Assembly: GCA_947625725.1 (NCBI GenBank)
Contig: CANQPI010000007.1
Location: 2,168 to 66,167, forward strand
DNA: 64,000 nucleotides
Origin: an uncultured Clostridia bacterium
Lineage (GTDB): Bacteria > Bacillota > Clostridia > Christensenellales > CAG-314
Direction: 5' to 3'
This document shows positions 2,697-33,275 of this stretch, one piece after another; positions within the stretch are counted from its first letter, which is position 1, and each line of letters begins with the position of its first letter. Both the position numbers and the translations under genes were made by a program. Under the pieces are notes generated by a model. The model made no database searches. It had not been told where the DNA came from and saw nothing but the letters and a program-made list of their open reading frames with translations.

Positions 2697-2712
2697 AATC
2701 TTCCGAATAATA

Positions 2713-3159
2713 TCAGAGCAATTGATTTATCTTGCTCTGCACAAAGTTTGCGTCGTGCGCGTTTGCACATACGATCAAAATCGTGCTTTTGTCCGCTAAT
2801 ATACCCAAAATTTCACTCAAACCGAGTTGTTCGATAGCCCCCGAAACCACCGACGCGCCATCTCCGATCGTTTTGACAACGACAAGGTTTTCCGCAGTAA
2901 CGACGGATATGACCGTTTCTCTGACAACGCTTTTGAGTTTGGCGGACAACGCGCTCATGGATTGCTTGGTGACATATTTGTATTTGTTGCCTGCCGCAAG
3001 CGTTTTGAGCAGTCCAAGTTCCTTGATGTCGCGCGAAATGGTCGCTTGCGTAACGTCAAAACCTTGACGTTTGAGTTCGGCTACAAGTTCGTCCTGCGTT
3101 TCTATATCCTTGGACGCAATGATAGCAAGGATCGCCGATTGTCTTGAAGTACGTGACAT
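2713..3159 (-). CDS. argR: Arginine repressor ArgR/AhrC
   Basis: 148-aa ORF with the N-terminal winged-helix segment QDELVAELKRQGFDVTQATISRDIKELGL. GTGAGG RBS before ATG 3159. Sits upstream of recN as in Bacillus. Confidence 0.9.
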   Translation of the reverse strand: MSRTSRQSAILAIIASKDIETQDELVAELKRQGFDVTQATISRDIKELGLLKTLAAGNKYKYVTKQSMSALSAKLKSVVRETVISVVTAENLVVVKTIGDGASVVSGAIEQLGLSEILGILADKSTILIVCANAHDANFVQSKINQLL

Positions 3160-3202
3160 TTTTACCTCACTGCCGCTAAATTAGCGAGTTTTTGCTGATT
3201 TT

Positions 3203-3237
3203 AATAATACTATGTCTGACATATTATTATTTATTTC
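3203..3237. repeat. Copy C of a recurrent AT-rich quasi-palindromic element (perfect core TATGTC-T-GACATA)
   Basis: Plus strand reads AATAATACTATGTCTGACATATTATTATTTATTTC. Lies in the dxs/argR intergenic region about 58 nt upstream of the argR start. See the copies at 13961, 37441 and 51883. Confidence 0.5.
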
Positions 3238-3319
3238 TCAAAATTCGAGAGTAGTTCGGTGATTTGACGGTTTGTTCGGCCGACAAGCGATATTCCGATA
3301 ATTACCCGCGACAAGTTTT

Positions 3320-5116
3320 TTACGGTCTGAGCAACGCGGATATTTTGTCGAAAAGGCTGTCGAAATCCAAACCGCACAAAGCCAATTGTTGTTCGACGGT
3401 CGCATGTCGAACATAGGTATCTTCCACGCCGAAGGAAACGACTTTGATTTTCTTGGGAGATAGATACGCCGCAACCGTTTGACCGAAACCGCCCTGCAAG
3501 ACGTTTTCTTCGAGAGTAACCACCGTTTCGCCGCGTATTCCGTCGAGATAATCTACGCACAACGGTTTGACCTGCAAAACGCACACCGCTTCCACGCCGT
3601 CGATACTTTGCGCCAGCCTCTGCGCGGTTTCGGAAAGTTTTGCGCCGACGGCGAGAATTTTTATCTTGGCGTTCTCGCAACTTTTCAAAATTTGCACCGC
3701 GCCGTCAAAGCGTCCGTCGCGACCGCTCAAATACTTGGAATATCTGATGGCTGTCGGACCGACTTCCGTCAGACTTTGCTCGATCATTTGAGAAAGTTGT
3801 TTGTAGGTCGCGGGAGTGAGTATTGTGAGATTGGGTATTTGCCCGAGATAGGACAGATCGAACAGCCCTTGGTGAGTCTGACCGTCCTCTCCCACAAACC
3901 CCGCTCTGTCCAACAAAAAGGTTACGGGCAGGTTTTGTATCGCTACGTCGTGTAAAATTTGGTCATAACTCCGTTGCAAAAAGGAGGAATATATCGCGAC
4001 AAAGGGTCTTGCGCCGCCCTTTGCCAGCCCCGCCGCAAAGGTAACGGCATGTTCCTCGGCAATTCCCACGTCGAAAAACCTGTCGGGAAAGCGTTTTTGG
4101 AAAGAGGCTAGCCCCGTAGCGCGCGCCATTGCCGCCGTGATCGCCACAACGCGGTCGTCTTGCTCGGCTATTTTGCAAAGCGTATCTCCCACCACAGCCG
4201 CGCTTTCCAACGAGTCCGTCGAACTCCCCGCGCGGGGGACAGAGTGAAAACTTTCGGGATCTTCCTCAGCGGGGGAATAGCCCTTGCCCTTTTTGGTAAC
4301 TATCTGCATGACCGTGGGCTTGACGACGTTCTTTTTGATTTTGGAAAAGTAGTAAACCAGATCCTTAACTTCGTTGCCGTCCACGATCCCTATGTATTTC
4401 AAATCGAAATTGTCAAAGTAATTGTTGCGTACAAATCTTGCTTTGGCGCGACGTTTGCACCACCGCAAAAATTTGTAGGTAGGTTTGCCCAACAGCGGTA
4501 CTTTGAGCAAAAATTTTTTCAGACGCTGTTTGTTGCGGTCGTATTTTCCCACCCGCAATTTAGACATGTTGAGCGTTGCCGAACCGACGTTGTCCCCAAT
4601 CGACATGTTGTTGTCGTTTATGACGATCAACATATTTGTATCCTTGACGTTGTTCAACGCCTCGTACACCATGCCGTTGGTCATAGATCCGTCGCCGACG
4701 ACGGCGATAACATTGTAGTTTTCGCCCAGAGCGTCGCGCGCTTTGGCTAAACCGAGCGCGGCGGAGATCGCAGTGCCCGCATGCCCCGTGTTGAAAGAGT
4801 CGTGCTCGTCCTCGCTGCAATCGGGAAAGCCGCTTATGCCGTTTTGTTGCCTTAACGAAGAAAAATTCTCACCTCGTGAGGTAAGAATTTTGTGTACGTA
4901 ACTTTGATGTCCCACATCCCACACGATCTTGTCGTTTTCATCAAATACGTAATGCAACGCGACAGTCAGTTCCACAACGCCCAGATTGCTTGCCAAATGT
5001 CCGCCGCTTTGCATAACGTCGGCGATAAGTTTGTCGCGGATTTCCGCGCAAAGTGTCGGCAACTGTTTTACCGAGAGTTTTTTGAGGTCTTCGATTGTCT
5101 TTACTTGTTCTAACAC
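3320..5116 (-). CDS. dxs: 1-deoxy-D-xylulose-5-phosphate synthase
   Basis: 598-aa ORF with DVGHQSYVHKIL and the TPP-binding GDGSMTNGM motif. GTG start one nt after the upstream stop, with an AAGGA Shine-Dalgarno. Confidence 0.95.
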   Translation of the reverse strand: MLEQVKTIEDLKKLSVKQLPTLCAEIRDKLIADVMQSGGHLASNLGVVELTVALHYVFDENDKIVWDVGHQSYVHKILTSRGENFSSLRQQNGISGFPDCSEDEHDSFNTGHAGTAISAALGLAKARDALGENYNVIAVVGDGSMTNGMVYEALNNVKDTNMLIVINDNNMSIGDNVGSATLNMSKLRVGKYDRNKQRLKKFLLKVPLLGKPTYKFLRWCKRRAKARFVRNNYFDNFDLKYIGIVDGNEVKDLVYYFSKIKKNVVKPTVMQIVTKKGKGYSPAEEDPESFHSVPRAGSSTDSLESAAVVGDTLCKIAEQDDRVVAITAAMARATGLASFQKRFPDRFFDVGIAEEHAVTFAAGLAKGGARPFVAIYSSFLQRSYDQILHDVAIQNLPVTFLLDRAGFVGEDGQTHQGLFDLSYLGQIPNLTILTPATYKQLSQMIEQSLTEVGPTAIRYSKYLSGRDGRFDGAVQILKSCENAKIKILAVGAKLSETAQRLAQSIDGVEAVCVLQVKPLCVDYLDGIRGETVVTLEENVLQGGFGQTVAAYLSPKKIKVVSFGVEDTYVRHATVEQQLALCGLDFDSLFDKISALLRP

Positions 5117-20483: not shown

Positions 20484-20811
20484 AGAGCAACTCGTCTATT
20501 TTTTGACCGTATTCCATAGATGTATCCGAAACAAAGCGGAATTCCGGAACTTTGCGTATGTGCATCGATTTGGAAATTTCTCTGCGAATTAACGGTTCGT
20601 TTTCCTTTATCGCGGTAAAAGTGTTTGCGGCTTTGGCGGGGTCAACGGAATAAACGCTGACGTACACTTTGGCAGAGGACAATTCCTTGTCGCAGTCAAC
20701 GTCCAAAATCGTAAACATCTCGGTTATACGCGGGTCTTTGACCTTTTTGGTGAGTATTTCCACGATCAACCGCTTAAACTCCGAATTAAGTTTGTCTGTT
20801 CTCACATTCAT
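20449..20811 (-). CDS. rbfA: Ribosome-binding factor A
   Basis: 120-aa ORF with RbfA-like sequence (..[27 protein letters not shown]..). ATGA overlap with the infB stop. Confidence 0.9.
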
Positions 20812-23369
20812 TGCTCGATTTCTTCCATTTGATAAATTTCAAACACGTCGCCGACCTTGATGTCGTTGTAATTCTCTATCGAAATACCGCACTCGTAGCC
20901 CGACGCAACTTCCTTTACGTCGTCTTTGAAACGCTTCAACGCGAGAATGTTGCCGTCGTAAATGCTGACGTCGTTGCGATAAATACGAACTTTGCCGCTA
21001 CGCACAACTTTGCCGTTGGTCACATAGCAACCCGCAACAGACCCAACGCCCGTGATCTTGAATACCTCGCGCACTTCCGCACTGCCCAAAACTTGTTCGC
21101 GGAACTTGGGCGCAAGCATTCCTTTCATTGCGGACGTAACGTCGTCCACCGCGTCGTAAATGACGTTGTACAAACGCACGTCAACGCCCTCTTTTTCGGC
21201 GAGGGCCTTTGCGTTGTTGTCGGCGCGCACGTTAAACCCGATTATGATAGCGTCGGAGGCTTTTGCCAACATAACGTCCGTTTCGGTGATCGCGCCCACG
21301 CCCCCGTGGATCGCGCTGACTTTCACTTCGTCGTTGGAGATCTTTTCCAAACTGCTTTTCAACGCTTCCAAACTGCCTTGAACGTCGGTTTTGATGATAA
21401 TGTTGAGCGTTTTGAGTTGACCTTCGGAAATACGTCCGAACAAATCTCCCAGACTGATAGAGGGGGTTTGGCGAGCGTTTTCCAATTTGATTTTGTTTTT
21501 GCGTTCTTCCGCCGCCTTTTTGACGAGTTTTTCGTCTGCCACGTACATATAGTCGCCCGCTTGCGGAACTTCGGAAAAGCCCAGCACCTCTACCGGCATG
21601 GAGGGTCCCGCGCTCTTTACCTTGCGCCCCTTGTCGTCGAACATTGCACGAATTTTGCCCGTGGCATACCCCGCAATGAGGCTGTCGCCGACGTACAACG
21701 TACCGTTACTGACAAGCACGGTCGCAACGGGACCTCTGCCCTTGTCCAACTTGGCTTCCAAAACGGTACCCGTGGCACGTTTGGCGGGATTGGCTTTGAG
21801 ATCCTTGATTTCCGTAACAAGCAACAGACTTTCCAACAACTTGTCAAGTCCCATTCCCGTTTTGGCGGAAACAGGCACCATTATCGTGTCGCCGCCCCAT
21901 TCTTCGGGAACGAGTTCGTACTCCGTCAATTGTTGTTTTACCCTGTCGGGATCGACGTGCGGCTTGTCCATCTTGTTGATGGCGACGACAATGGAAACGC
22001 CCGCGGCCTTGGCATGGTTGATAGCCTCGATCGTTTGCGGCATAACGCCGTCGTCTGCGGCTACGACAATGATCGCAACGTCGGTGATTTTCGCGCCGCG
22101 AGCGCGCATTGCGGTAAACGCCGCGTGTCCCGGCGTGTCGATAAAGGTAATCGTTTCGCCGTTTGCCGTGACCGTATATGCGCCGATATGTTGCGTGATG
22201 CCGCCCGCCTCTCCCTCGGTAACGTTTGTGTTGCGGATAGCGTCCAGCAACGACGTTTTGCCGTGGTCAACGTGTCCCATTACCGTTACAATGGGAGGAC
22301 GTTTGGTATTGTTTTCCAATCCGTCGTCGGCGTCCGCTTCTTTCAAAATAATGTCTTCGGCAGTCTGTTCTTCCTTTAACTCCAACGTTACGCCGTGCAG
22401 ACCCGCGATATACTCCGCATAGTCAAAGTCCACGGTATCGTTGATGGTTTTCATTATACCCTCTTTGAACAGTTGCTTGATTATCTCCGACGCGGATACG
22501 CCTATGCGTTCGCTGAGCAACTTGATCGGAACTTCCTTGTCGTTGACGACGGCATGGGTAATTTTGGGAGCGGTAACGACCGTCGTTTCCGTCTTTTTGG
22601 TGCGCGCGCGCCTTACTACTCTGTCCTCGTCGTAGTCCGCCGAGTAATCGCGCGTGAGCAATATCTTTTTGGAGTTCACCTGACGTTTTTCGTCGGGATG
22701 ATCCTTGGTTTTGTTTTTGTTGCCGTGAGATTTTTGCGGCGCGTTTTGCGGAATATCTATTGCGGGAACAAATTTCTTTGCTCCTTGTTGCGACCGCTGT
22801 TGAGAACGCGCGCCTTGATCGTCTTTGCCGCTCGGTTTGTTCCCCGCGCCCTGCGACTTGCCGCCCTGCGGACGCTCACGCTTGGCGTTGCCGCCCGAGG
22901 AAGACGTCTTTTTGACGGGGTTGAGATCAATGAAAGTACGTATCTTGATATTACCTTTTTCGTCGGTGTACTTTTTGATCTCTCTGCCGTTTTCGACGAT
23001 AGTTTCCACGCTCACTTTGGGCTTGACTTCTTCCGTGGGAGCGGGTTTTTCCTCCTCTTTGACCGTCGGCTCGACTGTTTGCGGTTGTTGCTGTTCCTCG
23101 ACCGTCGGCTCGACAACGGGTTCGACGATCGGCTCTTGCACGACTTCCGCCGCTTCGTTTTGAGTCGCAAGTTCGTTTGCCGCCGCTTCCATTTCCTGCT
23201 GTCTGAATTCGATCCTCTTTTGCTGAATGGTTTCGGACAAAGCGTTGGCGCGTTGCTTGACGTTGGACAACGTTTGTTGCAACGCGCGAGCGACGTTCAA
23301 AACGTTCGATTTGACCGTTTTGACGTTTTCAAAACTTCTCGGTTTTTGTGTATTAGTTGTATTTGCCAT
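20808..23369 (-). CDS. infB: Translation initiation factor IF-2
   Basis: Track ORF 20808..23585 trimmed to [13 protein letters not shown].. (ATG 23369, GGAGGAAAAAT RBS). G-domain motifs [21 protein letters not shown]. Confidence 0.95.
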
Positions 23370-23665: not shown

Positions 23666-23912
23666 TCAAGTTCTCCAATTGTTCCGCGACGCTTTCCAGC
23701 GAAAAGCCGTGTTGCTTGACAAAGCCTTTTTTTTGCGCTTTCGCGATACATTCTCGGCATTTGCAAAGGTACACGCCTCTGCCGTTGAGTTTGCCGCTCA
23801 GATCCACCACAACGCCGTCGGGGGTGTTTACGATCCTAATCAAAGCGTTTTTCGGTTTCATCTGACGGCAGATCACGCACATACGCTCGGGCGTTTTTTT
23901 GACAGTACTCAC
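23655..23912 (-). CDS. ylxR: YlxR (DUF448) RNA-binding protein
   Basis: 85-aa ORF with a GTG start. ..PERMCVICRQMKPKNALIRIV..NGRGVYLC.. typical of YlxR. Sits downstream of nusA. Confidence 0.8.
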   Translation of the reverse strand: MSTVKKTPERMCVICRQMKPKNALIRIVNTPDGVVVDLSGKLNGRGVYLCKCRECIAKAQKKGFVKQHGFSLESVAEQLENLIER

Positions 23913-23918
23913 GTCCTA

Positions 23919-24995
23919 TCACTCTCCGTCGCTATCGAACATACCGCTTTGAAGCGCGGCGGTATAGGATTTTACGTCTATCTTCCAACCCGTCAAACGA
24001 GCGGCAAGACGAGCGTTTTGTCCCTCTTTGCCAATGGCGAGCGACAGTTTTTCGTCGGGAACGACGACTTTCGCTTCCTTGGCTTCCTCATCCGCCTGCA
24101 CTATCAATACCTTTGCGGGGGACAGGGCGCGCGCAATGTAATCGAGAATATCGCTGCTCCAAGGAATGATGTCGATCTTTTCTCCGCCGATCTCGGCGAC
24201 AATGGCGTTTACGCGGATACCCTTGTTGCCGACGCATGCGCCCACCGCGTCAATATCGGGGTCGGTGGAATACACCGCCATTTTTGTACGGAAGCCCGCC
24301 TCGCGCACGATACTTTTGATTTGTACGATCTCGGCGCGGATCTCGGGCACTTCGTTTTCGAACAAACGCTTGATAAACATATAACTTGCGCGGGACAAAA
24401 TGACCTGCGTACCGCCTATGCCTTCGCGTACGCGCTTGACAAGCACCTTGATTTTGTCGCCGACGTGAAATTTTTCGCCGGGGATCTGCTCCTGTACGGT
24501 AAGCACGCCTTCCATTTGATTTTTACCGATTTCGACATAGATCGTTCCGTCGTCCTTGACGCGAGAAACAATACCGATGATCAATTCGTTTTCCTTGTCC
24601 ATATATTGGCTGTAAGTGGCGTCTTTTTCCACCTGGTGCAAACTGTTTTTGATGACCTGAACGGCATTTTGAGCGGCAATACGACTGAAATTGTGAGGAT
24701 TGATCTCCGTCAAAACTTCGTCGCCGATTTTGTAAGATTTTTTTATTGCCTGCGCGTCTTCGAGAGAAATTTCCTTTTCGGGAGTTTCGACCGTTTCCAC
24801 CACGGTTTTGCTGATGTAAATTTTGATAGTGGTTTTTTCGGGATTGATTTTTACGACAATGTTAGACGCCTCTCCGTAGTTCTTTTTGCATGCAATTGTC
24901 AATGCCGTTTCCAAGGATTCGATAACCTTTTCTTTGCTGATACCTTTTGTTTCTTCAAGTTCGTCCAGTGCAAGAAAGAATTCTTTGCTGATCAT
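23919..24995 (-). CDS. nusA: Transcription termination/antitermination factor NusA
   Basis: 358-aa ORF with the NusA N-terminal, S1 and two KH regions (..VGACVGNKGIRV..). AGGAGG RBS. Confidence 0.95.
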   Translation of the reverse strand: MISKEFFLALDELEETKGISKEKVIESLETALTIACKKNYGEASNIVVKINPEKTTIKIYISKTVVETVETPEKEISLEDAQAIKKSYKIGDEVLTEINPHNFSRIAAQNAVQVIKNSLHQVEKDATYSQYMDKENELIIGIVSRVKDDGTIYVEIGKNQMEGVLTVQEQIPGEKFHVGDKIKVLVKRVREGIGGTQVILSRASYMFIKRLFENEVPEIRAEIVQIKSIVREAGFRTKMAVYSTDPDIDAVGACVGNKGIRVNAIVAEIGGEKIDIIPWSSDILDYIARALSPAKVLIVQADEEAKEAKVVVPDEKLSLAIGKEGQNARLAARLTGWKIDVKSYTAALQSGMFDSDGE

Positions 24996-25006
24996 GATTG
25001 TTCCTC

Positions 25007-25465
25007 CTAAAACTCGATAATCGGCTCTACTTTTGCCGTATCTTTTTTGTAAAATGAAATTTGTTTTCCTTTTTCCGTTTCAACGGTGAACGCGTCGTCG
25101 TCGTAACCGACCAACACGCCGCTGAAAGTTTTTTTGCCGTCGCGCGGACTGTAAAGTTTTACGGAAATTTTTCTGTTGAGATTTCGTCGGTAGTCCCTTT
25201 CCGTTTTGAGCGGACGGTCTATCCCCGGCGAGGAAACGTTGAGCGTATAGGACTCCGCTATTGGGTCCAATTCATCCAACGGAGCGTCGATGGCTCGGTG
25301 CAATCTTTCGCAATCGTCGATCGTTACGCCGCCGTCCTTGTCGATAACTACCGTCAGGTTCATTCCGTCAAACTTTTTTTCGTACAGAACTTCGATCACT
25401 TCCAACCCCAACCGCCGAGCGATGGGATCGACCAGAGCGAATACCTGTTCGGAAATTTTTCCCAT
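25007..25465 (-). CDS. rimP: Ribosome maturation factor RimP
   Basis: 152-aa ORF with ..LNVSSPGIDRPL.. AGGAGG RBS. First gene of the rimP-nusA-infB operon. Confidence 0.9.
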   Translation of the reverse strand: MGKISEQVFALVDPIARRLGLEVIEVLYEKKFDGMNLTVVIDKDGGVTIDDCERLHRAIDAPLDELDPIAESYTLNVSSPGIDRPLKTERDYRRNLNRKISVKLYSPRDGKKTFSGVLVGYDDDAFTVETEKGKQISFYKKDTAKVEPIIEF

Positions 25466-25486
25466 AAAACCTCCTTACATCAAGTT

Positions 25487-25510
25487 GAGAGTGGAGAAAC
25501 CTCCACTCTC
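25487..25510 (-). other. Perfect 10-bp hairpin in the rimP 5' leader
   Basis: Reverse strand reads GAGAGUGGAG-guuu-CUCCACUCUC, ending about 13 nt before the AGGAGG RBS. No U-tract follows. Confidence 0.4.
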
Positions 25511-25596
25511 ACCAAATAACGATTAAATGGCGATTCGTGTACGACTTGCACGCAAGCGCAAACCGTATGTAACAAATTTCTCAATTTGTCAAGTTA

Positions 25597-25625
25597 ATTA
25601 TACCACAGCAAATCGCGTTTGACAA
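25597..25625 (-). promoter_or_regulatory. Sigma-A-type promoter for rimP-nusA-infB (TTGTCA-17-TATAAT with TG extension)
   Basis: On the reverse strand, -35 TTGTCA is at 25625-20 and -10 TATAAT at 25602-25597, with a 17-nt spacer ending in TGG. Confidence 0.55.
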
Positions 25626-25648: not shown

Positions 25649-27289
25649 TTACTTGGATTTCGAGTTCAAAAAAGCAATACATTTGGCAACGGCAAGCGCG
25701 GTATCGCGGCATAACACGGTGCTGTTGTACGAAACTTTGCATTTTTTTGTCAAGTCTTCGAGTCGGGCGACGTTTACGCTTGTCGAACTCAACGCGCTTC
25801 CGTTCCAAAGCGCGTCCAACAACTCGTTTTGCGCGACGGTTTTGTTGGCAAAGCGGTAATTCATCGGAGCAGCATAGTAGTTTAGCAGATCCAACGTCTG
25901 AGTCAAATCGTTGCCGACCAATTCAAATCCGTACAAAAATTTGTACAGGTCGGAAATTATTTCCGTCAGCGTCGGATAGAATATAAGTTTGTTTTGAGCA
26001 AGTCCGCACGCTTTGAGCGCATGCTCGTCGATCTCTTTTTCGGGGTTTACGTAACCGAACAGCCTTTGAGTGACATGTCCGCGTTCGACTTTTACGGCGC
26101 AAATTGCATAGAGTTTGTCCTCTATCACTTTGCCGAAACCCGTCGAGTTGACGTGCAACACCGCCAACTTTCTGTCGGCGACGAGGGGACTTTCGGAATC
26201 GAAGTCCACAAAATTTATCTGCCTGTATTCCGTGCAATCTTCGGGCTGTATCAAAATATAATCGTCGGCGACTTTGCGGTTGAATTGCGCCGAGGGCGAA
26301 ACGGGATCTATTTTGCATCTGCACAGGTCGTAAACGCGCATTTCCAACTGACCGTTCAGATCGTACGCCACCTTTCCCCTCACGACGACGGAAGAATTGT
26401 CGGCGAGCCAGGTAATTTCTTTCAACTTTTTGTCGTTTGCCAAAATGCGCTTTTGCGAGAGCGTCTTTGCTTCCGCCTCGCCGCGCCCCGTTTCGCTCAT
26501 GATGGTTTGGACGTCGGTAATTTGCATGTTGACAAATACCACGCAGGAGATGGTTGCGCCGCTTGCGTCCGTCAAAGCGAACTTGCATAAGTACAACAAC
26601 GGGTTATTTTTGGCTTGACGGCAGGTTTTGCCTGAAACCGTTCCGCAAATTACGCAACTATCCGCGGGATTGCGCAGATCCGAAATGTACATAGGGTCGG
26701 AGGAAATGACTTTTCCGATCAGCGGGTCGCAACCGCTTACGTGAAAAAATCTCGACGGTTTGAGCAATTCCTTGTTAATTGCAAGTTGAACGAGTTTTTC
26801 CTGCTCGGTCAGATCGGACGACGAGCCGCTTTCGTCGGTGACGAAAGAAAAATCTATCGCGTAACTTGTGTAATCTTTGTAGTGATCGTTCAAAATTTCG
26901 GCGAACTCGACGTTTTCCAGATTTTTTTCGGTGACGGCGTCCACATTGATTTTGACGTCGATATGTCGTCCGTCTATTTTCACGTTGATCTTGTTTTTGT
27001 TTACGTTTACGAAAACGGGAAAGCGCGTTTTGATAAATTCCGTAAGATTGCGGGTAAAACTTACTTGACTGAACACATCTTCGACAATGCGCAACGAATA
27101 AAAGTACCCTTTGGGCAACAGCGAAGAAACGATTTCCTCTATACGCGAGCGGACGGATCGATCGAGGGAAGTCGCGTCGGGGTAAGAAAGCGTGCAAAAC
27201 ACCGTGCGTTGCTGTTTGTCCACACGGATCTCCCTGATACGCATATCGGCAAGTTGCGGTATTTGCTTGTGAATTTCGTCAATTATCAT
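25649..27289 (-). CDS. PolC N-terminal-region homologue: N-terminal domain + OB fold + degenerate DnaQ-like exonuclease domain; no PHP or polymerase core
   Basis: 546-aa ORF occupying the polC slot (ispG/rseP upstream, rimP downstream). Residues about 205-325 match the PolC OB fold (..VICGTVSG..FALTDASGATISCVVF..VVVRGKVAYDLNGQLEMRVYDL). Residues about 373-546 align with the PolC exonuclease, but its motifs are altered: LAVLHVNSTGFG (D-x-E becomes H-x-N), ELVGNDLTQTLD and VLCRDTALAVAKC. The call as a real CDS is strong. The functional label is inference. Confidence 0.6.
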   Translation of the reverse strand: MIIDEIHKQIPQLADMRIREIRVDKQQRTVFCTLSYPDATSLDRSVRSRIEEIVSSLLPKGYFYSLRIVEDVFSQVSFTRNLTEFIKTRFPVFVNVNKNKINVKIDGRHIDVKINVDAVTEKNLENVEFAEILNDHYKDYTSYAIDFSFVTDESGSSSDLTEQEKLVQLAINKELLKPSRFFHVSGCDPLIGKVISSDPMYISDLRNPADSCVICGTVSGKTCRQAKNNPLLYLCKFALTDASGATISCVVFVNMQITDVQTIMSETGRGEAEAKTLSQKRILANDKKLKEITWLADNSSVVVRGKVAYDLNGQLEMRVYDLCRCKIDPVSPSAQFNRKVADDYILIQPEDCTEYRQINFVDFDSESPLVADRKLAVLHVNSTGFGKVIEDKLYAICAVKVERGHVTQRLFGYVNPEKEIDEHALKACGLAQNKLIFYPTLTEIISDLYKFLYGFELVGNDLTQTLDLLNYYAAPMNYRFANKTVAQNELLDALWNGSALSSTSVNVARLEDLTKKCKVSYNSTVLCRDTALAVAKCIAFLNSKSK

Positions 27290-28325
27290 TTGTCAGAGCG
27301 TCTATTTCCTTTTTGAATTGTTCGATTGCCTCGTCTGCATTTACTGTTCTGTAACGTTTGCCGCGCTTGAAAAACACAAATTTTCCGTTTGCGCCAGCAA
27401 GTCCCAAATCGGCGTCGGCGCACTCCCCCGGACCGTTTACTTCGCACCCCATTACGGCAATTTTGACGTTTTTGTCCAAGTTTTTTACGTAGTCGTAAAT
27501 TTCCTTTGCCACGTTTTCGAGGTCGATACTGCACCGCCCGCACTTAGGGCAGGACACGAACGTAACGCCGTCTTTCAAGCCGAGCGATACCAAAATATCC
27601 TTTGCGGCGATCACTTCCTCAACGGGATCTGCCGTCAACGAAACGCGCACGGTATCGCCTATTCCGTCCAAAAGCAACGCGCCGATACCTATCGAATTTT
27701 TTACAATGCCCTGTTTAACCAGCCCCGCCTCGGTAACGCCCAAGTGAACGGGATAGCCGAGTTGAGCGACAAGACGGTTAGTCCGCACCGTTTCCGTCAC
27801 GTCGGTACTCTTGACGGACAGCACTATATCGTCGAAATTGCGACTCTCGAAATATCTGACGTACTCCGTCAAACTTTCGTACATAGCCTGCGCTCTGCTG
27901 CCCGTGCGCGCCAAAACGTCTTTGTTGATTGAACCGCCGTTCACTCCTATGCGAATGGGTATTCGGTGCATTTTGGCGCAATCGATCACGCTGTCCAACT
28001 GCGACAAGGACATATTGCCGGGATTGACGCGTATTTTGTCCGCGCCGTTTTCCGTTGCGGCTATCGCCAGACGATAGTCGAAATGTATGTCGGCGACGAG
28101 AGGCATGTCCGTTTGAGCGCGCACCTGTTTGAAAGCGCGCGCCGCGGCAATATTGGGAACGGCAATGCGCATAATATCGCAACCCGCCTCGCCGCACAAA
28201 GTTATCTGCGCCAGCGTTGCCTCGACGTCGGTCACGGCGATATTTGTCATTGATTGTATCGCAATGGGATTTTGCGCGCCTATTTTTAGATTGCGAACGG
28301 CAATTTCTTTGGTAATTTTTCTCAT
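27279..28325 (-). CDS. ispG: 4-hydroxy-3-methylbut-2-enyl diphosphate synthase (GcpE)
   Basis: Track ORF trimmed to MRKITKEIAVRNLKIGAQNPIAIQSMTN.. (ATG 28325, overlapping the rseP stop). C-terminal Cys cluster ..FVSCPKCGRC... Confidence 0.9.
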   Translation of the reverse strand: MRKITKEIAVRNLKIGAQNPIAIQSMTNIAVTDVEATLAQITLCGEAGCDIMRIAVPNIAAARAFKQVRAQTDMPLVADIHFDYRLAIAATENGADKIRVNPGNMSLSQLDSVIDCAKMHRIPIRIGVNGGSINKDVLARTGSRAQAMYESLTEYVRYFESRNFDDIVLSVKSTDVTETVRTNRLVAQLGYPVHLGVTEAGLVKQGIVKNSIGIGALLLDGIGDTVRVSLTADPVEEVIAAKDILVSLGLKDGVTFVSCPKCGRCSIDLENVAKEIYDYVKNLDKNVKIAVMGCEVNGPGECADADLGLAGANGKFVFFKRGKRYRTVNADEAIEQFKKEIDALTNDN

Positions 28326-29611
28326 AGTTTCAGTATATCCACAAGGAACATCAACAAAATCAACACCACAAAGCCGATACCGTTGATGTAACTTTGCACC
28401 TTTCGGTTGATGGGTTTGCCCGCTATCCATTCGATAATTACGAATATCATCTGGCAACCGTCAAGGGCGGGCACGGGCAGCAAATTGAACACAGCCAAGT
28501 TGACGGAGATCAGCACTATCAACATAAGCACGTTGCCGAAACCCGTCGAAACGATTTGCGTAGTCATTGCTATCGTGGAAATAGGTCCGCTCACGTTCTC
28601 GATACCGACGGCTCCCGTCAGCAAGCCGCCGATCGTGCGCAGAACAAGCATGCCCACTTCGCAACAGTACGGGACGACGCGCAACAGCACTTCGCCGAAC
28701 CCGAATTTGTATTTTGCATATCCGACGGACATACCGATTCCCTCGTAGGGTTGTTCTTCCGCCGCGATAAAACGTTCGAAATCCGCCTTGGATAGCGTGT
28801 AGTCGTAGTATTTTGTGCCGTCGGTCACGGTAAAATTTATCGTTTCGCCCGCATTACGCAACGCGTTTTCGAGGTCGCCCGCTTGACTGAGCAACTTGCC
28901 GTCGATACTGTACAGCACGTCCTGCGCCGCAAGTTTTCGGTCGCCGTTATCGAAATTGCCGTTGACGGCGGTCAAAACAACGGTATAGTACTTGCGTTTG
29001 ACGATGTTTTTGAGTTCCACTTGTTTGTAAACGGTTTTACCGTTTTCCTCTGTCGGGCGCAACACGGTAAAAGTCATGTCGTCGTCGGACAAATAACGCG
29101 AAAGGTCGTCCAACATATAAACGCGCCGACCGTTGACTTTGTAGATCACGTCGCCCGAAAGTAACTGCCGATTGGAAGCGGGAACGTAGTCGTAGACGTT
29201 ATTGACCACGGCGACCGTTTCGCCGTAAGCGGCAAACACGATTATCGCTATCAAAATCGCCGAAACAAAGTTGAACAAAGCCCCCGAAACCAACACTATC
29301 AAACGCTTCCAAGGCTTTTGAGAGTTGAACGCTTTGGGATTTTTGTTGTCCTCGCCCTCGCCCTCGAACGCGCAAAAACCGCCCAGCGGCAAAAGACGCA
29401 AAGAAAAAACCTCGCCGTTTTTCTTTGTTTTGGAAAATATTTTCGGTCCCATGCCGACGGAAAATTCCGATATTTTGAAACCGAGTATTTTTCCTGCCGT
29501 GTAGTGTCCCGTTTCGTGGATAAGCACCATTACCATCAACACTACAAACGCCAGCAGTACGTAGCCTATCGTCTTGAATACCGAGGCTGCGTCGCAAATG
29601 AGATTCAGCAT
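28322..29611 (-). CDS. rseP: RIP metalloprotease RseP/RasP (site-2 protease, M50)
   Basis: 429-aa ORF with the HETGHY zinc motif, a PDZ-like middle region, and NLLPVPALDG. Confidence 0.9.
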   Translation of the reverse strand: MLNLICDAASVFKTIGYVLLAFVVLMVMVLIHETGHYTAGKILGFKISEFSVGMGPKIFSKTKKNGEVFSLRLLPLGGFCAFEGEGEDNKNPKAFNSQKPWKRLIVLVSGALFNFVSAILIAIIVFAAYGETVAVVNNVYDYVPASNRQLLSGDVIYKVNGRRVYMLDDLSRYLSDDDMTFTVLRPTEENGKTVYKQVELKNIVKRKYYTVVLTAVNGNFDNGDRKLAAQDVLYSIDGKLLSQAGDLENALRNAGETINFTVTDGTKYYDYTLSKADFERFIAAEEQPYEGIGMSVGYAKYKFGFGEVLLRVVPYCCEVGMLVLRTIGGLLTGAVGIENVSGPISTIAMTTQIVSTGFGNVLMLIVLISVNLAVFNLLPVPALDGCQMIFVIIEWIAGKPINRKVQSYINGIGFVVLILLMFLVDILKL

Positions 29612-31766: not shown

Positions 31767-32436
31767 TTATTCCTCCGTAATTGCGCGCGCGCCGTCTGTA
31801 ATCGTCGATAATTTCGTCGTACTCGCGCGGCGTAAAATCCGGCCACAAAGTATCGGTGAAATACAACTCGGTGTACGCGCTTTGAAACAGCAGAAAGTTG
31901 GACAGACGTTTTTGTCCGCCTGTACGTATTATCAAATCGGGGTCGGGCAACCTTTGATAAAGGTTTTGTTCGATACCTTCCGCCGTGATTTCCTTTCCCT
32001 GACGGTTGAGTTTTTTTACCGCCTCGACGATTTCCCTCTGTCCGCCGTAATTGATACAAAGATTGACGCAAATCGCGTCGAAACTTTGCGTAAGTTTTTC
32101 GATACGATCTATTTTTTTGACAAGTCCGTCGGGCAAGCCCTCGCGCTCTCCCGATACCACCACTCGCACCCTGTCTTTGCAAAACTTTTCAAAGCGGCTC
32201 AAATACCTGTCGGCAAGCGCAAAAAGATTGTTTACCTCGGACGCGGGGCGTTTCCAATTTTCGGTGCTGAACACAAACAGCGACAGATACCTCACACCTA
32301 CTTGCAGCGAGCGATCTATTATTTGTTCGGCAACGTCCAAACCGCGTTTGTGACCGTGCAATCGGGCAAGTCCTTGCGCCTTTGCCCAACGTCCGTTGCC
32401 GTCCATTATGATTGCTATGTGTGCGGGATCGTTCAT
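31753..32436 (-). CDS. uppS: Undecaprenyl diphosphate synthase
   Basis: Track TTG start trimmed to ATG 32436 (MNDPAHIAIIMDGNGRWA..). Classic cis-prenyltransferase motifs. Confidence 0.95.
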   Translation of the reverse strand: MNDPAHIAIIMDGNGRWAKAQGLARLHGHKRGLDVAEQIIDRSLQVGVRYLSLFVFSTENWKRPASEVNNLFALADRYLSRFEKFCKDRVRVVVSGEREGLPDGLVKKIDRIEKLTQSFDAICVNLCINYGGQREIVEAVKKLNRQGKEITAEGIEQNLYQRLPDPDLIIRTGGQKRLSNFLLFQSAYTELYFTDTLWPDFTPREYDEIIDDYRRRARNYGGINGSE

Positions 32437-32633
32437 CAAACCTCAAATTTGTAACGGCAAACGATCAATTCCAATCCTGCGTCCGACGAACGCACCGCCG
32501 TTACCAACTCCCTGTCAAAATTTTGTTGTTTTCTGTCTACATAATAAACAAACTTGAAGTTTGTTATACCCTGCCTACGCAATACGTCTTGGGCTTGGCA
32601 AACTTCAAGTCCGATCAAATCGTTGAAATTCAT
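32436..32633 (-). CDS. Hypothetical 65-aa protein (PASTA-like pattern by eye), coupled between frr and uppS
   Basis: ORF MNFNDLIGLEVCQAQDVLRRQGITNFKFVYYVDRKQQNFDRELVTAVRSSDAGLELIVCRYKFEV. It starts 6 nt after the frr stop with no SD, and its stop overlaps the uppS ATG (TGATG). No homology search was done. Confidence 0.4.
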   Translation of the reverse strand: MNFNDLIGLEVCQAQDVLRRQGITNFKFVYYVDRKQQNFDRELVTAVRSSDAGLELIVCRYKFEV

Positions 32634-32639
32634 TTCGAA

Positions 32640-33215
32640 CTAAACGGACATCACGTCTGTTTCTTTGTCACGGGCAAGTTTGTCTACCGATTCGATTTGT
32701 TTGGACAGCGACTTGTCTATTTGTTCCTCGTAATCGGCAATGATATCTTCCGATACGGTTTTGGCGTTCTTTTCCTTTTTGAGTCCGTCCATAGCGTCCC
32801 TGCGCGCGTTGCGCAACACCACTTTGGTATCCTCAGCCAACTTTTTGACCTGTTTTACAAGTTCCTTGCGGCGTTCCTCCGTCAGCACGGGGAAAGTCAA
32901 CCTTATGAGCGTGCCGTCGTTTTGGGGCGTAACGCCGATATTGGCAGCCAAAATCGCCTTTTCGATTTCTTTGAGAGAAGATTTGTCCCAAGGCGTAATC
33001 ACCAGACATCTCGGCTCGGGAATGGAAATGTTGCCCATCATTTTGATTGGCGTGGGAGTTCCGTAGTAGTTTACGCGAATACTCTCCACCAATTTGGGAT
33101 TTGCTCTGCCTGCGCGCATAAGGTTGTATTCGTTTTTCATATAGTCGATTGCTTTTTCGCAATCCATGTCGAAACTCAAAAATATTTCTTCGATTTGCGG
33201 TGTAGCGTAATCCAT
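32640..33215 (-). CDS. frr: Ribosome recycling factor
   Basis: Track ORF trimmed to MDYATPQIEE.. (ATG 33215). The upstream ATG lies inside the GGAGG RBS. Confidence 0.95.
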   Translation of the reverse strand: MDYATPQIEEIFLSFDMDCEKAIDYMKNEYNLMRAGRANPKLVESIRVNYYGTPTPIKMMGNISIPEPRCLVITPWDKSSLKEIEKAILAANIGVTPQNDGTLIRLTFPVLTEERRKELVKQVKKLAEDTKVVLRNARRDAMDGLKKEKNAKTVSEDIIADYEEQIDKSLSKQIESVDKLARDKETDVMSV

Positions 33216-33275
33216 AACACCCTCCATATAGTATATTGTAATTATTTTACAACAAATGCAAATTTAATTCAATAG

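Follow-up and report, generated by a model that had tools for sequence, protein, structure and literature searches.

Which protein takes the place of polC in an uncultured Clostridia bacterium, and what might it do there? PolC is regarded as the replicase that nearly all Firmicutes possess and require, and in Bacillus and many Clostridia its gene is followed by rimP and nusA. The stretch of DNA analysed here, hereafter the window, comprises 64,000 nucleotides of contig CANQPI010000007.1 (GenBank assembly GCA_947625725.1; Christensenellales, CAG-314) and carries, between ispG and rimP, an open reading frame (ORF) of 546 amino acids. An initial annotation, which was made without database searches, described this ORF as a truncated PolC-like protein with a degenerate exonuclease domain and recognised no described family to which it might belong. 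We find that the ORF encodes a functional, strongly conserved protein whose ancestor was the N-terminal half of PolC. Rather than standing alone, it represents a degenerate sub-clade within a family whose members mostly have intact active sites. This family is large and apparently undescribed, and in uncultured Clostridia it takes the place of polC directly after ispG.

The proposed relationship to PolC is borne out by profile comparisons. When PolC N-terminal sequences, taken from the supplement of Timinskas et al. 2014, were compared with the family over the full length using hhalign, the match had a probability of 99.6% (E=1.3e-23) and extended over 354 co-linear columns that span the N-terminal domain (NTD), the OB fold, and the start of the exonuclease (Exo) domain. 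The first PHP segment of PolC appears in this alignment as an insertion relative to the family. For the individual domains, deep NTD and OB profiles were built from 116 clostridial PolC N-terminal fragments and from 263 family members. The NTD alone matches in register with a probability of 96.4% (E=1.4e-9, 131 columns), a result that supersedes the E value of 0.017 obtained with a shallow profile of six PolCs, and the NTD of the degenerate clade alone still matches PolC with E=6e-7. The corresponding value for the OB fold is E=3e-24, and reversed and cross-domain controls gave E=0.07-0.41. Taken domain by domain and co-linearly, these comparisons indicate that the NTD, the OB fold, and the Exo domain all descend from PolC.

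A search of the AlphaFold2 (AF2) model of the window protein against the PDB with Foldseek, a check suggested in the initial annotation, returned full-length E. faecium PolC as the top match (9qpc_A; E=2.8e-13, 416 aligned columns). The next matches are stand-alone and embedded DnaQ domains (8h2f, 2gui, 1j53, and 2p1j; E=1e-8 to 1e-6, target TM score ~0.7), which are followed by the OB region of G. kaustophilus PolC. With the NTD, Foldseek retrieves only generic neighbours (BON, ring-building-motif, and KH-like folds), and no solved PolC NTD exists. The best NCBIfam model of the window protein is also PolC (PRK00448; E=4.9e-10, query residues 370-537 against profile positions 420-580), with a score of 37.6 bits that lies below the curated cut-off of 873 for whole PolC, as does the score for TIGR01405 (30.2 versus 1043). 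Among relatives with intact active sites, PolC is the best NCBIfam model for four out of five (E=1e-44 to 3e-53), and in the family member P0175 a single PolC match covers both the OB fold and the Exo domain. Pfam yields nothing significant for the window protein, including neither the PHP domain (PF02811) nor the polymerase domain (PF07733), and its PolC NI and NII models have no match in 17 family members.

In the window protein as in PolC, an NTD is followed by an OB fold and then by a DnaQ-type exonuclease fold, and both genes lie directly after ispG. However, PolC is ~1450 amino acids long, and the window protein lacks both parts of the PHP domain, the palm, thumb, and fingers, and the HhH region. 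The absence of the PHP domain and the polymerase core, as first described, is confirmed by Pfam and by tblastn, which with PHP and polymerase-core queries found no match across the window and a further 1.1 Mb of related loci, except in two control loci that carry an Exo-less PolC. The term 'truncated PolC' is nonetheless not fully accurate. Loss of the C-terminal part does not suffice to describe it, since PolC has a PHP segment ahead of its Exo domain and this segment has been lost too. Likewise, the C-terminal clamp motif of PolC is missing from the window protein, which has a clamp-type motif instead in the linker between the OB fold and the Exo domain, at the place of the PHP domain in PolC. 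The catalytic residues of the PolC exonuclease are replaced as well.

Structurally, the AF2 model (37-sequence alignment) has a mean predicted local distance difference test score (pLDDT) of 85.5 and reproduces the layout that had been proposed by eye, with an NTD, an OB fold (placed originally at residues ~205-325 and found to be longer; Table 1), and a DnaQ-like Exo domain at residues ~373-546. The NTD reaches a pLDDT of 92.8 when modelled alone. The helix that links the NTD to the OB fold is the top-conserved segment of the degenerate clade (mean pairwise identity 0.61), and residues Q163, E164, L166, V167, A170, E174, P178, and R180 are invariant within this clade. AF2 places the helix at residues 158-175, with low pLDDT over residues 150-180. 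Such low model confidence is typical of a partner-binding element. Within the OB fold, C215-G216 is invariant throughout the whole family. The helical insertion in this fold is conserved in the degenerate clade and partly present in a few intact members, and it may constitute a new interaction surface. The linker between the OB fold and the Exo domain is 45 amino acids long and is largely unstructured in the model.

The family alignment assigns the five DEDDh columns to H379, N381, T465, V525, and T530 of the window protein, such that all five residues are replaced. This alignment upholds the initial reading of ExoI, in which D-x-E-T-T-G has become LHVNSTG. For ExoII and ExoIII, the region was chosen correctly and the substitutions are real, but the exact residue equivalences differ slightly from those first given (Table 1). 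The DEDDh residues are thus still absent after proper alignment. Across the degenerate clade, the replacements at these positions are H/F/Y, N, T/I/L, V, and T.

The extent of the family became evident when 1.84 billion representative proteins were searched exhaustively with a profile. This search recovered 223 clusters at E<1e-30 and 740 clusters at E<1e-10, and the family therefore comprises at least 223 clusters defined at 50% identity. The full-length proteins among the top 150 matches all have 480-577 amino acids, and none has the length of PolC. Distant members that are 20-25% identical to the window protein have the same architecture and carry intact VVFDxETTG, LVGHNxxFD, and NAHRAxxDA motifs. 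Indeed, the DEDDh residues are intact in 118 of 134 (88%) near-full-length representative clusters. A neighbour-joining tree places the window protein in a clade of 32 terminals without a single intact member, and five other non-intact sequences (P0128, P0130, P0131, P0133, and P0145) fall outside this clade. The intact stand-alone proteins share their architecture, length, and linker motifs with the window protein, although its clade is at most 25% identical to any of them. Most intact members combine DEDDh with a canonical Qxx[LM]F motif, whereas the window's clade has lost the catalytic residues and carries Qx[SN]F[VT]. Public annotations name family members 'exonuclease domain-containing protein', 'RNase H-like domain-containing protein', or 'hypothetical protein'. 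In agreement with the initial impression that this is not a described family, no description of it was found in full-text literature searches or in two dedicated surveys of bacterial C-family polymerases.

The linker between the OB fold and the Exo domain contains a feature that the initial annotation had overlooked, which is a motif of the type that binds the beta sliding clamp. It stands out in a linker that is otherwise poorly conserved. In 122 of 132 intact members, the aligned linker column contains Gln and is succeeded by x-[DNS]-[LMFI]-F, as in QTDMF, QTNLF, QMDLF, and QVSLF. The more general pattern Qxx[LMIF][FL] is found at this site in 96 of the 118 intact representative clusters (81%), compared to 0.05 expected from the frequency of the motif elsewhere in the same proteins. 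The information content is 3.7 bits for Q, 2.5 bits at position 4, and 3.2 bits at position 5. Judged by its sequence, the motif of the intact family corresponds to the classical beta-sliding-clamp-binding pentapeptide, and similar clamp motifs (QMTFF, QMSFL, and QLSFF) are found at the C-terminus of clostridial PolCs. Among non-intact members, Gln is present in 131 of 131 and Phe at position 4 in 111 of 131. In the degenerate clade, the last residue is Val or Thr rather than Phe, and in the window protein the motif reads QINFV, with V in place of the canonical final Phe, in a region modelled as coil (pLDDT ~74). The same linker carries a Y-x-x-V-x-P motif (4.1, 3.3, and 4.25 bits for Y, V, and P), which is present in the window protein as Y344, V/I347, and P349. 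This second motif has no obvious counterpart in PolC.

The claim that the ORF sits in the ancestral polC slot is supported by the arrangement of genes in related Clostridia. In the cultured relative Caproiciproducens galactitolivorans, which has an ordinary PolC of 1446 amino acids, the gene order is frr-uppS-cdsA-dxr-rseP-ispG-polC, and PolC directly follows ispG in loci L062, L063, and L064, with Exo-less PolCs arranged in the same manner. The arrangement ispG-X-rimP, where X encodes 500-580 amino acids, is found in the window, in three other loci with a degenerate member (L001-L003), and in two lineages with an intact active site (P0150 and P0175). Gene tables were read for loci L001-L006, and the 49 loci L007-L055 were searched by tblastn for IspG, which was found in nearly all of them. 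Synteny is therefore conserved where gene tables were read. NCBI taxonomy places Candidatus Fimimonas in the Myxococcaceae, and two family-bearing metagenome-assembled genomes (MAGs; among L020, L028, L030, L033, and L039) are labelled 'Corallococcus sp.'. These labels probably reflect a taxonomy error, because the gene order frr-uppS-cdsA-dxr-rseP-ispG...rimP-nusA is that of Clostridia.

Conservation among close relatives indicates that the protein is retained despite its degenerate active site. A first protein search recovered 113 homologous clusters that are 40-60% identical and almost all 543-550 amino acids long, and a scan of GTDB species-representative genomes located the gene in 49 loci. 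These loci are from uncultured gut MAGs of rabbit, mouse, chicken, ruminants, and humans that are labelled as Christensenellaceae, Oscillospiraceae, Clostridia, Ca. Fimimonas, or Ca. Limihabitans. The IspG proteins of these genomes are 58-75% identical to that of the window, and the genomes thus form one organismal lineage. The ratio of nonsynonymous to synonymous substitutions (omega), calculated by the Nei-Gojobori method from 28 usable pairs among 47 coding sequences, is approximately 0.096 for the whole protein, 0.139 for the NTD, 0.070 for the OB fold, 0.134 for the linker between OB fold and Exo domain, and 0.129 for the Exo-like domain. These values confirm that the ORF is under purifying selection.

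With moderate confidence, we favour the reading that the window protein derives from PolC and serves as a clamp-associated accessory factor that is now non-catalytic. Most family members are predicted to be active DEDDh 3'-5' exonucleases, and the canonical clamp pentapeptide in their disordered linker suggests that they are tethered to the clamp, like the epsilon subunit of E. coli Pol III. For the window's clade, a non-catalytic role is most likely because the catalytic residues have been replaced while the fold, the OB fold, the NTD, and the linker motif stay under purifying selection. The window protein would dock at the replisome or the clamp, where its OB fold and dead exonuclease groove might hold single-stranded DNA or the primer-template. 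It might thereby act as a structural or gate-keeping subunit for the C-family polymerase of the cell, with proofreading presumably left to the PHP domain of the polymerase itself. All nine residues of the PHP metal-site signature, which a 2026 survey scores as an active proofreader, are present in clostridial DnaE1 and PolC entries. The presence of this signature in both polymerases makes a loss of DnaQ-type chemistry plausible in Clostridia.

Several points weigh against this interpretation. For the NTD no function is known even in PolC, in which it is flexible and has not been resolved, and its fold neighbours are generic. Clamp binding is suggested by a short linear motif, and the Val or Thr that replaces the terminal Phe could weaken or abolish such binding. 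The description 'catalytically dead' reflects replaced residues in an alignment. Finally, the omega values are approximate because dS is high (~1.5), although the constraint on the protein is nonetheless clear.

Recruitment to a role away from the clamp and the replisome, for example as a single-stranded DNA- or RNA-binding protein or as a regulatory factor associated with the ispG or rimP-nusA-infB operons, is the main rival reading. In such a role, which we consider unlikely, binding would be the sole task of the OB fold and of the dead RNase H-like domain. The start of the ORF overlaps the ispG stop codon, which suggests translational coupling, and the ORF lies immediately upstream of rimP-nusA-infB. 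However, this neighbourhood was inherited from polC and hence carries little functional information. The clade has also gained the conserved helical insertion in its OB fold, and KH-like and NusA-like folds appear, weakly, among the neighbours of the NTD, yet all three domains derive from a replisome enzyme. This explanation keeps some probability because the last residue of the clamp-type motif, canonically Phe, has changed in the window's clade. Set against this change, the clade shows essentially no variation at Q and F of the motif, and this speaks for retention of the ancestral interaction. It is improbable that non-canonical residues have taken over from DEDDh and that the protein has thereby remained an active nuclease or phosphoesterase. 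The Exo-like domain is as constrained as the remaining protein (omega 0.13), and around the former ExoI site there is almost no variation at N381, T383, G384, D391, and K392. Nevertheless, all five metal-ligand or general-base positions are occupied by non-acidic residues, several of the DEDDh positions vary within the clade, unlike what is expected of a re-engineered active site, and no alternative conserved acidic cluster is evident in the degenerate-clade alignment.

The resemblance to PolC might also have arisen by convergence, through an independent fusion of an OB fold with a DnaQ exonuclease. The failure of the Pfam PolC NI and NII models to match any of the 17 members, the shallow-profile result for the NTD, and the fact that DnaQ domains of many families score nearly as high as PolC for the window protein would all fit such an origin. 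It is made very improbable by the deep-profile NTD match, which is in register, by three domains in PolC order, by PolC being the best NCBIfam match in four of five intact members, and by the location of the gene exactly at the site of polC. The initial annotation had also raised the alternatives of a pseudogene fragment or a mis-assembly. The catalytic motifs are indeed degenerate, and the window is rich in long spurious antisense ORFs. Nonetheless, a pseudogene fragment in decay, an ORF that arose by chance, or an error of assembly would hardly produce 113 clusters of conserved length, 49 species representatives with shared synteny where it was read, omega values of ~0.1, and a confident AF2 model, and polymerase remnants are absent downstream and nearby. 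These observations refute the alternative and leave it with virtually no probability.

Two known proteins offer analogies for the proposed accessory role. E. coli DnaQ (epsilon) is likewise a stand-alone protein with a DnaQ fold, and it shares with the wider family a motif of the Qxx[LM]F type, located in a flexible linker beside the Exo domain. According to a review, epsilon attaches to the clamp, controls entry to the clamp cleft, and increases processivity, so that its role is structural as well as catalytic. The window protein differs from epsilon in that it has none of the DEDDh residues, carries an additional PolC-type NTD and OB fold, has its motif before rather than after the exonuclease domain, and has no epsilon-like C-terminal tail for binding alpha. 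The sequence of its Exo domain is also closer to that of PolC than to that of epsilon. ImuB, a catalytically inactive homologue of Y-family polymerases, is likewise a pseudo-enzyme with a repair or replication enzyme as its ancestor; its fold and a clamp-binding motif have been kept, and it serves as a scaffold. This analogy is one of action only, since ImuB has an unrelated fold and ancestry and has known partners, ImuA and DnaE2.

Table 1. Features of the 546-amino-acid ORF, its surroundings in the window, and examples of Exo-less PolC in other loci.
Feature	Position	Strand	Basis or remark
ORF, 546 amino acids, PolC-derived, degenerate exonuclease domain, without PHP or polymerase domains	25649..27289	minus	ATG start; homology and AF2 model
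NTD, residues 1-155, two tandem small alpha/beta modules	26825..27289	minus	hhalign to PolC NTDs
Conserved NTD-OB linker helix, residues 156-180, EQEKLVQLAINKELLKPSR	26750..26824	minus	alignment
OB fold, residues ~181-327	26309..26749	minus	hhalign E=3e-24; Foldseek to PolC 3f2b and LysRS OB domains
Helical insertion in OB fold, ~40 amino acids, residues 256-296, TGRGEAEAKTLSQKRILANDKKLK...	26402..26524	minus	alignment and AF2
Linker motif Y344-x-x-V-x-P349	26243..26260	minus	common to intact and degenerate members, almost invariant
QINFV, residues 357-361, variant of beta-clamp-binding-type motif in disordered OB-Exo linker	26207..26221	minus	family alignment
DnaQ-fold pseudo-exonuclease domain, residues 373-546	25652..26173	minus	NCBIfam PolC PRK00448; Foldseek DnaQ
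ExoI position LHVNSTG; D to H379, E to N381	26138..26158	minus	family alignment
ExoII position GNDLTQTLD; H to N460, N to D461, catalytic D to T465	25889..25915	minus	family alignment
ExoIII position STVLCRDTALA; H to V525, D to T530	25691..25723	minus	family alignment
ispG (flavodoxin-dependent HMBPP synthase)	27279..28457	minus	stop overlaps ORF start by 11 nucleotides
rimP, first gene of downstream rimP-nusA-ylxR-ylxQ-infB cluster	25007..25465	minus	
Promoter-like TTGTCA-17 nucleotides-TATAAT, extended -10 TG, 11/12 matches	25597..25625	minus	consensus match only; gap between ORF and rimP
Antisense shadow ORFs	20811-22379, 23679-25010, 25061-25519, 32412-33275	plus	opposite real genes
Exo-less PolC examples (proteins P0416-P0424, P0429, P0435)	L061 696-4480; L062 6997-8663; L064 6001-9774		

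The coordinates of the locus agree with those first reported. The ATG of the ORF lies within aATGATAATTGA, the overlap with the ispG stop spans positions 27279-27289, and the ORF ends cleanly 183 nucleotides before the start of rimP at 25465. In relatives of the window too, the ispG stop and the downstream gene overlap or closely abut. The listed start of ispG is a TTG that overlaps rseP by ~135 nucleotides, and the real start is probably an internal Met because the NCBIfam match starts only at residue 42. The gap before rimP had been credited with a good promoter, and a near-consensus site does exist there. However, the scan found one site where 1.1 are expected from shuffled sequence, and this promoter is therefore only suggestive. 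No terminator-like hairpin is present in this gap. The gene order, entirely on the minus strand, is frr-uppS-cdsA-dxr-rseP-ispG-[ORF]-rimP-nusA-ylxR-ylxQ-infB-rbfA-nrnA, and further genes in the window include spoIIIAE, recN, dxs, topA, aspS, and smc. All window genes that are identifiable by homology lie on the minus strand, and long antisense 'shadow' ORFs (up to 522 amino acids) are found opposite infB, nusA, rimP, and frr. Gene-strand bias was considered as a proxy for PolC and dropped, as length-based gene calling is misled by these long antisense ORFs.

The locus also raises the question of which polymerase replicates these genomes. There is no polymerase in the window, where the only ORF of more than 1000 amino acids encodes SMC, and the contig sequence just outside it contains the recN/spoIVB and rnc/ackA-pta neighbourhoods and likewise no polymerase. 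The best 120 matches of a PolC protein search are N-terminal fragments or PolCs of Oscillospirales; none is tied to family-bearing MAGs, and the search is uninformative in this respect. A different derivative of the enzyme, Exo-less PolC (NTD, OB, PHP, and Pol3; 1250-1260 amino acids), in which the PHP domain is uninterrupted by an exonuclease, is widespread in uncultured Oscillospirales-like Clostridia. Its core is ~70-75% identical to that of ordinary PolCs of 1446 amino acids. A corresponding form from Clostridia and Negativicutes (NTD, OB, PHP, Pol3, and HhH; ~1200-1260 amino acids) was described by Timinskas et al. 2014. Like the window protein, Exo-less PolC lacks a whole module of the ancestral enzyme, occupies the same place directly after ispG, and is found in uncultured gut Clostridia. 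The deletions are nevertheless complementary, in that Exo-less PolC keeps the polymerase and PHP domains and loses the exonuclease, and the window protein does the reverse. In one of the loci with an Exo-less PolC (L061, positions 2700-4700), the ENA scaffold shows apparent frameshifts, polC is interrupted by runs of N, and an efp fragment follows it directly. The downstream context of this locus is untrustworthy because it is probably mis-scaffolded.

These complementary forms invite the idea of a split enzyme, in which the stand-alone protein would work with an Exo-less PolC encoded elsewhere. This idea is unsupported, and we regard Exo-less PolCs as alternatives to the family rather than as partners, because they occupy the same slot after ispG. 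Among complete genomes, the surveyed Firmicutes that have DnaE1 alone are a handful of thermophiles or sulfate reducers and include no gut lineages. Christensenella minuta is absent from the corresponding rows and is presumably classed there as PolC-containing. A bolder proposal, which we put forward tentatively and with somewhat less than even confidence, is that a radiation of uncultured gut Clostridia (Christensenellales-like and others, with hundreds of species clusters) has given up the PolC polymerase and relies on DnaE1 alone for replication. The remnant of PolC would then be an epsilon-like, clamp-tethered subunit that is an active proofreader in most lineages and a structural pseudo-exonuclease in that of the window. 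If true, this radiation would provide the first gut Firmicutes that lack PolC, with an intrinsic insensitivity to antibiotics that target this enzyme.

The polC locus of many uncultured gut Clostridia thus holds only the non-polymerase half of the enzyme. Either the polymerase has moved elsewhere in the genome or DnaE1 replicates it alone, and both possibilities bear on the division of labour between PolC and DnaE1 in Clostridia. The family also represents a natural dissection of PolC, which shows that the NTD-OB-Exo block can function without the polymerase, and it has apparently evolved a clamp tether of its own. In one clade the exonuclease chemistry has proved dispensable and the protein has not, which offers a handle on the role of the PolC NTD. 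Finally, antibiotics directed at PolC, among them ibezapolstat, are in clinical development, and the presence, absence, or remodelling of PolC in gut commensals affects the degree to which such antibiotics are predicted to spare the microbiome.

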